This document shows, one piece after another, positions 1,379-6,948 of a stretch of 64,000 bases of DNA. Position numbers and translations under genes: made by a program. Origin of the DNA: Escherichia coli (lineage in GTDB: Bacteria; Pseudomonadota; Gammaproteobacteria; Enterobacterales; Enterobacteriaceae); assembly GCF_002854065.1 (NCBI RefSeq), contig NZ_CP024152.1; one strand, 5' to 3'. Below the pieces are notes generated by a model. It saw only the letters and a program-made list of their open reading frames with translations, was not told the origin of the DNA and did not search any database. Within the stretch, counting starts at the first letter, position 1. Each line of letters begins with the position of its first letter.

Positions 1379-2203
1379 ATGAGACTGAATACGACCGGTA
1401 TTGCGGCCCGAATGATGCTCTCGCTGGACAAAAAAGCAATCGGCGAAAAACTCATCAACGGTCGTCAGATAAACCCGACACCTCTGCAGGTCCGTTACCC
1501 ACAAGGGGTAAGAGAAGTTCTGGGGATAATGAGCGAACAATTAGCCATATCCACCGCTGATTTAACCCGAATCCTGCTTGAGGATGCTCTTCATAATATG
1601 TTTATGCCTGCGGATAACACCACAGGAAACATAATAAGCAGAATTGAATACATCATGCTGTCGCATGATATAAATGCGCCATTACTGGCAACATTGCTGT
1701 CGCCATGGAATATCCGCTCCACGGTTATACAGGACCCGGCCAGACTTGCAGACTATCTTTCAGCTGACGCTCTCGAACATCTTGCTGAATGTTTTAATCT
1801 CAATCCGGACTGGCTGAATGGCCATGAAAACTATCCGATAGCGTTGTCCGGTGAATGGCCAGATACTGCTGATAATTTCAGAATGCTTATTAATAATAGC
1901 AGCAACACTGAAGTTATTTTCTGGCATAGTTTCCCCTTCGCAGGAAACACGAAAAGAGAATATTGCGGGGTAATATTGAGACAGGAAAAAGAAATAAATG
2001 GCTCTGTAATATATCCGGCACTATCATTATCACCAACACTTCTGAACGATGAAAAAAGAAAATGGTTAACTGAATATACAACCAGGCAGAATACAACAAT
2101 GTCTTTGCGACGCGTCACGTTGAGACCTGGCCTTGCCGAGAACCTTATTACAGGGCAAATACTACCTGTTAGCTTATTTAATACGTCTTTATTACCCTGG
2201 TAA
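1379..2203 (+). CDS. traE: TraE-like protein (274 aa), first gene of the traE-traK block
   Basis: ORF with GGAGG RBS; size and position match R64 traE; contains an LxxLxExFxxNPDWLxxxENxP motif shared with ORF 28438-29424. Confidence 0.6.
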   Translation: MRLNTTGIAARMMLSLDKKAIGEKLINGRQINPTPLQVRYPQGVREVLGIMSEQLAISTADLTRILLEDALHNMFMPADNTTGNIISRIEYIMLSHDINAPLLATLLSPWNIRSTVIQDPARLADYLSADALEHLAECFNLNPDWLNGHENYPIALSGEWPDTADNFRMLINNSSNTEVIFWHSFPFAGNTKREYCGVILRQEKEINGSVIYPALSLSPTLLNDEKRKWLTEYTTRQNTTMSLRRVTLRPGLAENLITGQILPVSLFNTSLLPW

Positions 2204-2288: not shown

Positions 2289-3491
2289 ATGATGAAGAAA
2301 AATCATATTACCCGCACCATCATTGCATCTGCTGTATTATTTTCCTTTAACGCTGCAGCAGCGACGTCATATTTTGAAGCGCGTAACGATGCAATGGGTG
2401 GCACCGGGGTAGCATCTTCCCATTATGGTGTGGCACCTCTGGCAAACCCGGCTTTACTGACAAAGCACAACAGCAATGATGATTTCAGCCTTCTTCTGCC
2501 GTCTGTTGGGGCACAAGTTGCTGATCCTAATGATGTATCAAATAAAGCTGATGATGTTAAAGATGACTGGGATTTGTTTGACAGTGCTGTAGATAACCAG
2601 CATGGCGTACAACAGGCAGCGGCAAATCTTAAACATCGTCTGCAGGAATTCCGCAATATCAATGCAGATGCTCAGGTAGGTGTATCAGCTGTAGCAGCCA
2701 TGGCAAATGACACTCTGCCGTTTGCCCTTATGGTCAAGTCTTACGGAACTGTCAGCGTAAACGGAAAAGTAAACGATGCAGACCTGGATTATCTGGACAA
2801 AGTTGCCAATGGAACAATTACCGACGTCGATAAGAATGCCCTGACCTCACGCGCATTCGGGCGTGCAGCTGTAATTACCGACGTCGGAATTTCATTTGCC
2901 AAAGAACTGGAAACGGCCGGACAAAAATGGTCTCTTGGCGTCACACCAAAATATCAGCGTGTGGACCTGTTTAACTACAACGTAACGGTTCGTGATTACG
3001 ACAAAGACGATTTTGACGGTGACAAGTACCACAACACGAAAAACGGATTCAACGCCGATATTGGTGCTTATACAGACCTGAATGACAACTGGACTGTCGG
3101 TCTTGTTGCCCAGAACATCATTCCACGCAGTATTGATACTAAAGTCGTCAATGGCTTTAAAGAAACCTTCAAAGTTCGTCCACAGGCAACCGCCGGTGTA
3201 TCCTGGCATAATGACCTGTTTACCACTGCTCTTGACGTTGATCTGACTCCTGCCAGTGGCTTCACTTCTGACAGCAAACGTCAGTTTGCAAGTGTTGGTG
3301 CTGAATTTAACGCATGGAAATGGGCGCAATTGCGTGCCGGTTATCGTCAGAACATGGCATCAAACTCCGGAAGCGCCTTCACCGCTGGCGTTGGTATCTC
3401 TCCATTTGACGTCGTACATATCGATGTTTCCGGCCTGGTAGGAACTGACCACGATTACGGTGCAATGGCACAACTTCAGTTCACTTTCTGA
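2289..3491 (+). CDS. traF: TraF-like outer-membrane protein (400 aa)
   Basis: N-terminal signal peptide (AAAATSYF cleavage region) and a C-terminal ...QLQFTF ending in Phe, typical of beta-barrel outer-membrane proteins. Confidence 0.6.
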   Translation: MMKKNHITRTIIASAVLFSFNAAAATSYFEARNDAMGGTGVASSHYGVAPLANPALLTKHNSNDDFSLLLPSVGAQVADPNDVSNKADDVKDDWDLFDSAVDNQHGVQQAAANLKHRLQEFRNINADAQVGVSAVAAMANDTLPFALMVKSYGTVSVNGKVNDADLDYLDKVANGTITDVDKNALTSRAFGRAAVITDVGISFAKELETAGQKWSLGVTPKYQRVDLFNYNVTVRDYDKDDFDGDKYHNTKNGFNADIGAYTDLNDNWTVGLVAQNIIPRSIDTKVVNGFKETFKVRPQATAGVSWHNDLFTTALDVDLTPASGFTSDSKRQFASVGAEFNAWKWAQLRAGYRQNMASNSGSAFTAGVGISPFDVVHIDVSGLVGTDHDYGAMAQLQFTF

Positions 3492-3550
3492 TTACTGTCC
3501 CCGCCCCCGGCACTAAACCCGGGGGTATTTTTATATTCATTTTAAATAAC

Positions 3551-4135
3551 ATGATGAAACCACGTTCTTCTTATTCAAAGACAGCATTCATTCTTTTATT
3601 TTCTGTTTTCCTGGTAGCTGCAGTGACAAAAGCAAAAAGCTCGCTTCCCGATATCACCCTAGAACAGGCAAAAGAAATTAATGCTGATAACACCGTTATT
3701 TTCCTTTTCCGCCATGGAGAACGTTGCGACCGTTCAGATATGCCATGCTATTCGGATAAAAGCGGAATCACTATTACCGGTACAGAGAAAGCACAGCAGG
3801 AAGGTATTAAGTTCGCAACAATCTTCAGTGAATATGATATTTACTCCAGCAATGCGGTAAGAACCATACAAACTGCAAAATTCTTCTCCGGTAAAGACCC
3901 CGTCGTTATGGACAGTTTATCAGACTGCAATAATGATCTTTATAAGACGCTTGAATCAATCGCAAGAGAATCTCATAAAAGGAACATAGTAATAATGACA
4001 CATAATCATTGTTTATCATTTCTGGCCAGAGATAGGCTCGGCAAGAAATTCAAACCGGCGTACCTTGATGCCCTGATCATGCATTACGATGGTACCCGGC
4101 TCATACTTGACGGAAAATACAACAAAGAGGCATAG
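3551..4135 (+). CDS. traG: TraG-like exported protein with histidine-phosphatase-type motifs (194 aa)
   Basis: Signal/TM segment, then FRHGER and later MTHNHC motifs resembling the RHG catalytic core of the histidine phosphatase fold. Confidence 0.55.
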   Translation: MMKPRSSYSKTAFILLFSVFLVAAVTKAKSSLPDITLEQAKEINADNTVIFLFRHGERCDRSDMPCYSDKSGITITGTEKAQQEGIKFATIFSEYDIYSSNAVRTIQTAKFFSGKDPVVMDSLSDCNNDLYKTLESIARESHKRNIVIMTHNHCLSFLARDRLGKKFKPAYLDALIMHYDGTRLILDGKYNKEA

Positions 4136-4529
4136 AGGATATTTGAATTTACATAAATTCTGATATACTCAGTAAGATACAAGAGTGTACGGGCACATGT
4201 GCCTGTCTGAATTGCAGGTCATCCGGACGAGGGCCGGGAACTGTTTCAGGGACAAGCGCCGGTACGTTCGATTCATAAATCGTCGAGTCATCCATCATGG
4301 ATCGATTCGGCGCGGAGCGTTAAAGATTACGCTCATATTCGTTTTATGTCTGACGACACATCAACCAGCCAGTATCAGGAATAATCACCTTCAGTAAACT
4401 ATGAGGCTATTTACCTGGCCACACTGGCATTTATTTCCGGTAACGCAAGTATAGCCGGAAACAAACATCATCCTGTCTGTACCGGAGCACCGGTATATCC
4501 CATTCTGATTTAACTGCTCAGGAATTATT

Positions 4530-4988
4530 ATGAACCGTATTATACCTGCGGGGTGTCTTGCCGCCCTTTTTCTGGCTGGCTGCAACTCCCCTTCTCAGCA
4601 TACTCCTGTTCCGCGTAACTACGGTGCTGCCTCTGATGTGGCGGTTACCCGGCACACTCAGTACACATTATGGGACAAAGGTGTGTTTTCCGGCCAACTT
4701 CCGGTTTCAACGGGGTCTCATCTTCTGACAGCTAACAGCGATCGCCTTTCCTTTGACTGGGAAGGTGATGCAATTGAATTACTGAACGAACTGGCCAGAG
4801 TCAGGGGGATGCAGTTTAACTACAATGGTGTCCGCCTGCCGTTACCAGTCAACCTTCACGTCCGGGATATGACGTTTTCCAATACGTTGAGACTTATTGA
4901 AGCCCAGACAGCCTGGAGAGCAACAATCCATCAATATCCGGGCTTGTTACAGGTCAGCTTCATGCAGCCGGAGAACCGGAAAAAATGA
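4530..4988 (+). CDS. traH: TraH lipoprotein (DotD-like), 152 aa
   Basis: Lipobox LAGC after a hydrophobic N-terminus; RBS present; gene order matches R64. Confidence 0.65.
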   Translation: MNRIIPAGCLAALFLAGCNSPSQHTPVPRNYGAASDVAVTRHTQYTLWDKGVFSGQLPVSTGSHLLTANSDRLSFDWEGDAIELLNELARVRGMQFNYNGVRLPLPVNLHVRDMTFSNTLRLIEAQTAWRATIHQYPGLLQVSFMQPENRKK

Positions 4989-5803
4989 AAGCACTCACCT
5001 CTCTCATTTTGCCAGTAATACTGCTTACTGGTTGTTCTTCTTCCCCTACCATCTCGCCAGGTGGTGTCAATACGCCACCACCTGACATTAATGCATGGCT
5101 TAAACCACGAAGTGAAAAGCCGGATAGTCTGTCAGAAACACGCTGGAAAATGCTGACCGACGCAGGTAAAACGCTTGGATTTCGTGGTGGCAAGGCTCAG
5201 CGTTCATGGGAGCTGATTCAGGCACTCAACTCCCGGGAAAGCACACTTAATGCCTTATACGATTTCCGGCCACTGATTAGCCCGGAAGGCTGGCTACCAC
5301 CGGTTATTGATGAAGCACAGGACGTAGCTCATATCACGCCAGATCAAATCCGGACCTCTTCCCGGGTCTGGACCATCATTCGCCCTGAACGCTTTGTCAG
5401 CAATCCACCGGGCTGGCGTGACTGGCTTCTCCGGGGGCTTTCAACAACAGCCACTCCGGGTACAGAAGGCAGCGTCGTTCCAGAAGACAGCGTGCAACGA
5501 AAAGTGTGGGAAACCGCATTACGGCAGGGATGGCAGGAAGGAAGACAAAACGCCGACCTGACGCTTGAAGCCAACCAGAAAACCCTCACCCGTGATTACC
5601 GGGGCATGATGCTGTACTCACTTCTCTGGCGTCAGGGCATGATCACCCGTCCGGATGTTTCTGATCAAATGCAAACCGTTACAGGTGACGGGAAAAAACT
5701 GGTCACTGGAGATCGTGTTCGTCGCCTTAAAAATCATGCGGAATTCAATCTTCAGAAATCTCACTGGCGTCCGCTTATAGGCACTGAAGGAGGCTCCCGA
5801 TGA
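4985..5803 (+). CDS. traI: TraI lipoprotein (DotC-like), 272 aa
   Basis: Lipobox LTGC; start overlaps the traH stop (translational coupling). Confidence 0.65.
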   Translation: MKALTSLILPVILLTGCSSSPTISPGGVNTPPPDINAWLKPRSEKPDSLSETRWKMLTDAGKTLGFRGGKAQRSWELIQALNSRESTLNALYDFRPLISPEGWLPPVIDEAQDVAHITPDQIRTSSRVWTIIRPERFVSNPPGWRDWLLRGLSTTATPGTEGSVVPEDSVQRKVWETALRQGWQEGRQNADLTLEANQKTLTRDYRGMMLYSLLWRQGMITRPDVSDQMQTVTGDGKKLVTGDRVRRLKNHAEFNLQKSHWRPLIGTEGGSR

Positions 5804-6948
5804 ATATTCCTGATGAGTTTGGTCTTTTTCCGTTTCAGCGTTTCACTGCAGATGAATTACGGCATTTCTTTGTCTGGTGTGCCGCACATAAAGTCAGTGA
5901 TGTGGATCTGACCGGTGGGTCACCTGTATCTGTCAGTCGCTTTGGCCGACGGGTGCGTTGTTCCAGTGCAACGTTACCAACCACACTCATGTCCTCCCTG
6001 ATTGATGAACTGTTCGGTCGGGAAGTCGTTCCCCGCGTTCTGGCAGGCAATCCGGTTGACAGGACGATACAGATTAACGGGGATGCATCCGGTCGCTATG
6101 GTCTTAAACGCGGAGAACGCATCCGGTTACGCTCCCACCTCATTCAGGGCACATCTGGTGCAGAGGAGAAAGCAGTCTCAATAACCATGCGTGTCATCCC
6201 GACAGAAATACCGGACATTCTCTCCATGAACATTGAACCAGACCTGCTTGAAGCAATGGTCTGCAAAAGCGGTCTGGGATTTGTATGTGGTGAAACCGGG
6301 TCAGGAAAATCAACGCTGTGTTCAGCACTGTACCGTTACATTATGGACAATTTCCCCGACGCCAAAATCGTGACATATGAAGACCCGGTGGAATATATCC
6401 TGGGAAATGAAAACGATCTGCTCCCACCGCATCAGGCAGAAATCGGGCGTGATGTGGTCAGTTTTGCTGCCGGACTGCGTTCTGCTGTACGACGTAATCC
6501 CGAAATTATCGGTGTTGGTGAGATCAGGGATAACGAAACCGCCGACGCAGCGGTACAGGCAGGCAACACCGGGCATTACTGCCTGAGCACCATGCATACG
6601 AAATCTCCTGGTGAAACGCTGGCACGTCTTCTTGGGCTGTTTCCCCCTGTCATCAGGGATTCGATGGCCTGGGCTGTCCTGTCACTGTTGCAGTTCATTC
6701 TGGTTCAGGTTCTGGTCAGAACAAATGACGGTGGTCGTAAAGCCGTCCGGGAATATATCGTCATTAACGATGAGCTTCGCGACAATCTTTCCGGAATGCC
6801 GCATGCAGAGTGGGGGCATCACATTGATGCCATAATCCGGCAGGAGAAGCGCCGTATCCGGGACCAGATTCTGGAAATGTATATCCGGAATGAAGTTGAC
6901 CGAAGAGAAGCGATTCTTTTTATCCCGCCAGGGGAGTTACGGTCATGA
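5800..6948 (+). CDS. traJ: TraJ secretion ATPase (DotB/PilT-like), 382 aa
   Basis: Walker A GETGSGKST and Asp/His boxes typical of PilT/VirB11-family ATPases. Confidence 0.8.
   Translation: MNIPDEFGLFPFQRFTADELRHFFVWCAAHKVSDVDLTGGSPVSVSRFGRRVRCSSATLPTTLMSSLIDELFGREVVPRVLAGNPVDRTIQINGDASGRYGLKRGERIRLRSHLIQGTSGAEEKAVSITMRVIPTEIPDILSMNIEPDLLEAMVCKSGLGFVCGETGSGKSTLCSALYRYIMDNFPDAKIVTYEDPVEYILGNENDLLPPHQAEIGRDVVSFAAGLRSAVRRNPEIIGVGEIRDNETADAAVQAGNTGHYCLSTMHTKSPGETLARLLGLFPPVIRDSMAWAVLSLLQFILVQVLVRTNDGGRKAVREYIVINDELRDNLSGMPHAEWGHHIDAIIRQEKRRIRDQILEMYIRNEVDRREAILFIPPGELRS

Follow-up and report, generated by a model that had tools for sequence, protein, structure and literature searches.

What does a small protein with the motifs of a histidine phosphatase do among the transfer genes of an Escherichia coli plasmid? 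IncI1 plasmids are among the main vehicles of ESBL and AmpC genes in E. coli and Salmonella, and their thin pili select recipients through binding to the LPS core. The gene considered here lies in a window (the whole stretch of DNA that was analyzed) of 64,000 nucleotides from E. coli contig NZ_CP024152.1. The original prediction described its product as an exported, TraG-like transfer protein and its histidine phosphatase motifs as an unusual enzymatic signature inside a type IV secretion operon.

Identity and setting of the gene

The ORF list of the window contains a 585-nt reading frame at 3551-4135 (+) that encodes 194 aa, with both motifs that the original prediction had named, FRHGER and, downstream of it, THNHC. 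Its product is identical to TraG of R64 at 193 of 194 positions, has the same length and occupies the same position, and the gene order rci-traE-traF-traG-traH-traI-traJ is shared with R64. The gene is traG, and its surroundings are the transfer region of a conjugative IncI1 plasmid (R64-type). That name is used in the GenBank records that keep gene names and in the revised pESBL annotation (PMC4288162), and some records bear the label "traG: histidine phosphatase domain protein." The gene and its neighbors in the window are:

17-1228: rci, the shufflon recombinase
1379..2203, + strand: traE; no Pfam match; named from R64 and pPWD4_103; lies between rci and the traH-trbC cluster
2289..3491, + strand: traF, a 400-aa outer-membrane beta-barrel and the upstream neighbor of traG; Pfam TraF_2 (PF13729), 244.5 bits
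3503..3536, + strand: GC-rich stem-loop in the gap from the traF stop to the traG start, GCCCCCGG-loop-CCGGGGGT with a T-run after it; terminator-like in a terminator scan
3551..4135, + strand: traG coding sequence, 194 aa plus stop; R64-type TraG, a branch-1 histidine phosphatase of the Ais/PmrG subfamily by Pfam, NCBIfam, identity to R64, and AlphaFold2 (AF2) fold
4530-4988, + strand: traH (DotD-like); Pfam DotD
4985-5803, + strand: traI (DotC-like); Pfam T4SS_TraI
5800-6948, + strand: traJ (DotB/PilT-like ATPase, plasmid transfer ATPase TraJ); Pfam T2SSE, NCBIfam

Downstream of traG, traH-traI-traJ (4530..6948, +) form the start of the core type IVB secretion genes, and beyond traJ lie traK, a PLD-type nuclease gene, and the gene for a large primase-like Sog protein. 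On the other side, TraF has weak matches to PorP/SprF and to the NCBIfam PorV_fam model (PorV/PorP-like) and also matches phage orthologous group phrog_38290 (function unassigned; E 2.6e-80). The traE-traF-traG trio may form an envelope-related accessory module.

The terminator-like stem-loop between traF and traG (3503-3526) stands 25 nt before the start codon. The GCCCCCGG/CCGGGGGT stem is kept in three I-type contexts, including those of the 87% and 73% identical alleles described below, while the loops differ and the T-run is absent in one of them (L002). Terminator, attenuator, and mRNA-end stabilizer are candidate roles for this element. No promoter-like site was detected between traF and traG at the scan threshold, and no obvious Shine-Dalgarno sequence precedes traG. 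With a hairpin upstream, no promoter-like site, and no clear Shine-Dalgarno sequence, expression of traG appears uncertain, which counts against the explanation that we favor below.

Family, fold, and catalytic residues

Pfam His_Phos_1 (PF00300) matches TraG at 34.7 bits (E 1.9e-8; gathering score 21.7 bits), and NCBIfam NF011945 / PRK15416 ("LPS core heptose(II)-phosphate phosphatase") matches aa 1-192 at 294.5 bits (E 3.4e-88; curated cut-off 142 bits), K-12 Ais reaching 391.9 bits on the same model. On the PmrG equivalog model NF052369, TraG scores 123.7 bits and K-12 Ais 145.8 against a cut-off of 170; because K-12 Ais (L014 5022-5621) also falls short, the shortfall of TraG is uninformative, and by these scores it cannot be a ground to exclude an Ais/PmrG-type function. 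His_Phos_1 was the only Pfam family above its gathering score, and none of the T4SS structural, ATPase, or coupling-protein families was matched. Homology to coupling proteins or to F-type TraG was ruled out, since Pfam gives no such domain. PADLOC and PHROG yielded no match of TraG to an anti-phage defense or phage protein family. Within traG, the elements that bear on function are:

3551..3634, + strand: N-terminal export signal, aa 1-28; basic n-region, hydrophobic core at aa 11-25, putative T-K-A|K cleavage site
3707..3724, + strand: FRHGER motif, aa 53-58; RHG signature with R54 and the nucleophile H55, also E57 and R58
3860..3862, + strand: codon of R104, within SSNAVRTIQT; second phosphate-pocket arginine, invariant in the family, pairs with SixA R55
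3998..4012, + strand: THNHC motif, aa 150-154; H151 is the second catalytic histidine and C154 one of four conserved cysteines

The family is small: an exhaustive HMMER search of 1.84 billion representatives returned 131 cluster representatives at E<=0.001. Across 75 aligned full-length members, H55 and R104 never vary, and at least 90% conservation was found for R54, E57, R58, C59, D60, and C66 as well as for G72, T74, Q107, T108, C126, T150, H151, C154, and Y171. TraG has exactly four cysteines (59, 66, 126, and 154), all at family-conserved positions. A chance occurrence of FRHGER and THNHC was ruled out by the profile scores together with this family conservation.

Structure prediction, proposed as a check alongside the original prediction, yielded a phosphatase fold: the AlphaFold2 model, computed with the family alignment as input, has a pLDDT of 94.7 and a pTM of 0.86, and its top 50 Foldseek matches in the PDB are all histidine phosphatases (best E 2e-8, probability 1.00). 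The branch-1 matches include RosC, phosphoserine phosphatases, SixA, PGAM5, PhoE, and CobC-like proteins. Searched by sequence at E<=1, the PDB held no solved structure of a close TraG relative. A profile alignment with E. coli SixA (hhalign probability 81%) pairs R54-H55-G56 with R7-H8-G9, R104 with R55, and H151 with H108, and it is from these positions that FRHGER and THNHC can be said to hold the nucleophile and the second catalytic histidine. Judging from the superfamily, catalysis would proceed via a phospho-histidine on H55, with R54, R58, R104, and H151 holding the phosphate. Profiles, predicted fold, and the residue alignment with SixA all support the initial reading of TraG as a histidine phosphatase. 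That reading was right about the enzyme but missed its specific family, the LPS-core heptose(II)-phosphate phosphatases of the Ais/PmrG type (K-12 Ais is 43% identical).

Export and compartment

As had been predicted, TraG looks exported by its sequence, with a single N-terminal hydrophobic segment. In a hydropathy scan, aa 11-25 are the sole strongly hydrophobic stretch (mean Kyte-Doolittle 2.72); they are preceded by K3, R5, and K10 and followed by T-K-A|K, a plausible signal-peptidase I site. AF2 models aa 7-28 as a helix, and a hydrophobic N-terminus is found in all aligned family members. A Sec-type signal would take TraG to the periplasm, with cleavage near A28, although the same segment could alternatively be an uncleaved anchor. 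Mature TraG would then be a minimal, SixA-sized branch-1 histidine phosphatase of the periplasm, probably stabilized by disulfides among its cysteines; the conservation of all four fits disulfides in an oxidizing compartment. Taken together, sequence and model indicate that TraG is very probably an active periplasmic histidine phosphatase.

Relationship to Ais/PmrG and the likely substrate

Over 164 aa, TraG and E. coli K-12 Ais share 43% identity (E 5e-51). The K-12 ais gene adjoins arnB and bears the annotation "putative LPS core heptose(II)-phosphate phosphatase," and Salmonella PmrG, the orthologue of Ais, is reported to take the phosphate off heptose II in the LPS core (Nishino et al. 2006). 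TraG presumably has the same chemistry and works in the same compartment as Ais/PmrG. By homology to these proteins, its most likely substrate would be the phosphate that heptose II bears in the LPS inner core, an assignment that we consider to have somewhat better than even chances. If it holds, a plasmid-carrying cell would display a less anionic LPS core. Two points count against this explanation: the substrate is assigned through approximately 43% identity to Ais, itself only "putative" in K-12, and E. coli and Salmonella hosts already have a chromosomal ais/pmrG, so that a second copy has no evident benefit.

The PmrA box follows the pattern YTTAAK-N5-YTTAAK. This consensus found the box in the K-12 ais-arnB intergenic region with 1 mismatch, which served as the positive control; it found none within ~250 nt upstream of traG, and its window-wide counts were at chance level. 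Regulation of traG by an ais-like PmrA box was rejected, since no box lies upstream while the positive control worked. Because traG has no PmrA box and sits in the tra region, the plasmid would probably supply its LPS edit independently of the host PmrAB signal.

Distribution and selective constraint

The traG region (900 nt) matches 1386 PLSDB plasmids, 1292 of them at 99% or more, and 1352 of the matched plasmids are typed as conjugative; their hosts are Escherichia, Salmonella, Shigella, and Klebsiella. The DNA of traI-traJ occurs in 1361 PLSDB records, and with counts this close traG is in effect part of the IncI1 backbone. Among the matches listed, nearly all traG-bearing PLSDB records (>1,300) carry the annotation "histidine phosphatase family protein." What had been taken for an unusual signature belongs to a constant backbone gene, already annotated as a histidine phosphatase in those records.

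Of 1354 plasmids, 1226 contain an exact copy of the 57-mer that encodes FLFRHGERC. R54H, carried by P0001, the representative of the largest 90% cluster, is found in only 1 of the 1354. The P0002 cluster (365 member sequences) is without six residues, MPCYSD, including the conserved C66, and this 18-nt (6-aa) deletion variant is essentially absent from complete PLSDB plasmids. Loss of the active site in IncI1 was discarded on the strength of these two counts. P0001 and P0002 also illustrate that cluster representatives can mislead about the typical TraG sequence. Because the catalytic residues are conserved and dN/dS between alleles is 0.16, the sequences argue that TraG has been kept functional.

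A divergent allele and mobile relatives

A protein 73% identical to TraG (P0013) occupies the same place in a rare I-type plasmid lineage (L002). The traG gene of that lineage is only 76.4% identical to the window at the nucleotide level (dS 1.03, dN 0.16, dN/dS 0.157), against 99.5-99.6% for the traE/traF flank and 99.2-99.6% for traI/traJ/traK/nuc. The divergent block (window 3491-4850 versus L002 5945-7370) begins just past the traF stop and fades within traH, and the traG-traH spacer is poorly alignable between the two. Judged from these comparisons, traG is a divergence island under purifying selection, probably imported by recombination. The P0013 allele is not in PLSDB, where tblastn gave no matches in the 60-80% identity band. 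In the single lineage that carries it, rci and most of the shufflon are gone as well (L002 3067-3589 versus L001 1262-3736), and the PilV adhesin is fixed as a result.

Other relatives of TraG lie outside the IncI1 transfer region. One that is 87% identical (P0004; L012 5817-6587) has type II secretion genes (GspC/GspH-like) and a ricin-lectin/metallophosphatase gene as neighbors on an E. coli contig of 91.6 kb. A 125-nt remnant of the traF 3' end accompanies it, and the copy is, by its sequence, an I-type tra fragment relocated to a different setting. A 59% relative (P0020; L005 732-1307) is found among AraC-type and GrlA/CaiF-type regulators and an autotransporter. A 44% relative (P0033; L007/L008/L009 6001-6582) occurs on contigs of ~45-116 kb, with a Peptidase_S6 (SPATE, serine-protease) autotransporter and an EAL-domain gene as neighbors; these contigs are probably virulence plasmids. 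In PLSDB, ~68 plasmids carry paralogues less than 60% identical to TraG, and Ais-like paralogues recur on other mobile elements without a T4SS. In these settings, Ais-like phosphatases behave as portable envelope-modifying cargo, one of which has been fixed in the IncI1 tra region.

Role in conjugation

In Table 2 of the TnSeq study of the IncI1 plasmid pESBL, TraG is given probabilities of 0.79 for non-essential, 0.21 for maintenance, and 0.00 for required for transfer (PMC4288162). The same source scores TraE and TraF likewise as non-essential for transfer, describes a general conjugation cluster, essential in pESBL, that runs from traH to trbC, and reports a screen with one K-12 recipient on solid medium (PMC4288162). 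Full-text searches of the literature found no discussion of TraG function besides this Table 2 entry. The term "transfer protein" in the original prediction is a historical label only, given the required-for-transfer value and an essential cluster that begins at traH. A required role in conjugation, for which transfer by catalytic-residue mutants had been suggested as the test, finds no support in this screen under laboratory conditions. The best reading is that traG is an accessory gene whose product is neither a structural nor an essential element of the type IVB secretion machine.

Alternative explanations and the preferred reading

We favor, with moderate confidence, the reading that TraG is a periplasmic Ais/PmrG-like enzyme editing the host LPS core, encoded by an accessory envelope-remodeling gene that is kept by selection and is not part of the T4SS. 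Alternatively, TraG may be an active periplasmic histidine phosphatase with a substrate other than LPS-core heptose II phosphate, such as heptose I phosphate or pyrophosphoethanolamine, lipid A phosphates, a periplasmic phospho-sugar or nucleotide, or a phosphoprotein. TraG and Ais are no more than 43% identical, the PDB matches of the same fold act on substrates as different as flavin phosphate, phosphoserine, phospho-histidine, and ribazole phosphate, and TraG stands in a clade apart, with its closest relatives (59% and 51%) carried by mobile elements and likewise uncharacterized. We nevertheless regard another substrate as rather unlikely, since TraG clears the cut-off of the Ais/PmrG subfamily model by a wide margin along its whole length (aa 1-192), shares with Ais the RCDRS...C loop, the four cysteines, and THNHC, and belongs to a family so small and narrow (131 representatives at E<=0.001 among 1.84 billion) as to argue against a wide functional radiation. 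That traG might be a decaying passenger or pseudo-enzyme, retained by linkage to essential tra genes, would agree with its dispensability for transfer (PMC4288162), with possibly poor expression behind a terminator-like hairpin and without a clear promoter or Shine-Dalgarno sequence, and with the existence of the R54H variant and of the 6-aa deletion that removes C66. We find this highly improbable: the catalytic and structural residues are all intact, the two variants are confined to 1 of 1354 plasmids and to sequences essentially absent from complete plasmids, dN/dS is 0.157 at a dS of ~1, and traG is present in practically every plasmid that carries traI-traJ.

A conjugation-specific role might also be hidden in standard matings. 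Removal of core phosphate could alter how LPS-binding PilV adhesins or other donors see the donor cell, with less donor-donor pairing (a soft surface exclusion) or easier assembly of the pilus and T4SS in the outer membrane as proposed effects, and these might be confined to liquid, to the gut, or to certain recipients. Such a role is consistent with the fixed site that traG occupies in essentially every IncI1 plasmid, next to both the T4BSS genes and the pil/shufflon/rci module, and with the published TP114 study, in which I-type PilV adhesins bind defined LPS core structures that include a heptose-heptose-4-phosphate epitope. Furthermore, the pESBL screen was limited to one K-12 recipient and solid medium (PMC4288162), and the local hyper-divergence of traG in an otherwise 99% identical backbone could reflect selection on surface interactions. 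However, that divergence is equally explicable as a simple recombination import, the required-for-transfer probability in the same screen is 0.00 (PMC4288162), and close paralogues sit on elements without conjugation genes. The WaaY-added heptose II phosphate is unimportant for recognition by PilVA' of IncI2 TP114, and the link to thin-pilus receptor recognition is weakened because this adhesin is indifferent to it. IncI2 R721 has pil genes and a shufflon and no annotated histidine phosphatase in 50 kb around them, and it rules out TraG as a general partner of the shufflon/type IV pilus module. A conjugation-specific role is, on balance, unlikely. Its fuller version, in which TraG is a PmrAB-independent LPS editor that tunes PilV recognition or insertion of the pilus and T4BSS into the outer membrane and in which the divergent alleles reflect selection on this surface trait, is slightly less likely again. 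If true, conjugation-linked LPS editing would keep unproductive pairing between donors in check or change mating specificity.

The traG gene, its family, and its dispensability for transfer are already on record, and current annotation gains nothing from our analysis; traG is an ordinary accessory gene, neither unusual nor new. A gene for an LPS-core-phosphatase-like protein that is found in almost every IncI1 plasmid, is under purifying selection, and is unneeded in laboratory matings suggests an envelope-remodeling function. Effects on envelope charge, on tolerance of metals or peptides, or on recognition by phages or adhesins are possible outcomes that this suggests for TraG.

Comparison with known systems

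The closest counterparts of the window's TraG are those of R64 and ColIb-P9: the motif-encoding DNA of the window is identical in both plasmids, and the R64 protein differs by one conservative substitution, D116E. With the VirD4-type coupling proteins of RP4/Ti and with the TraG of the F plasmid (mating-pair stabilization), IncI1 TraG has the name alone in common; those proteins are large membrane ATPases or polytopic, whereas IncI1 TraG is a soluble protein of 194 aa. IncI2 R721, for its part, resembles the IncI1 plasmids in its pil genes and shufflon but has a VirB-type T4SS, and no histidine phosphatase is annotated in the 50 kb examined.

SixA and other minimal branch-1 histidine phosphatases share the fold of TraG (Foldseek 1ujb and 2rfl, probability 1.00), and the small catalytic domain of SixA is of similar size, with equivalent RH, R, and H positions. 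In sequence, these matches are nevertheless just 13-19% identical to TraG, and SixA is cytoplasmic, lacks the signal sequence and the four cysteines, and acts on a phosphoprotein. The likeness to Ais/PmrG takes in the N-terminal export segment, the RH(G/A)ERCDRS...C loop, SSN.VRTIQ(T/S)A, THNHC, and the four conserved cysteines. The differences concern setting and descent: Ais/PmrG are chromosomal and lie beside the arn operon, with a PmrA box upstream of ais in K-12, whereas TraG is plasmid-borne in the tra region between traF and traH, has no such box upstream, and falls in a different clade, with its nearest relatives carried by other mobile elements.
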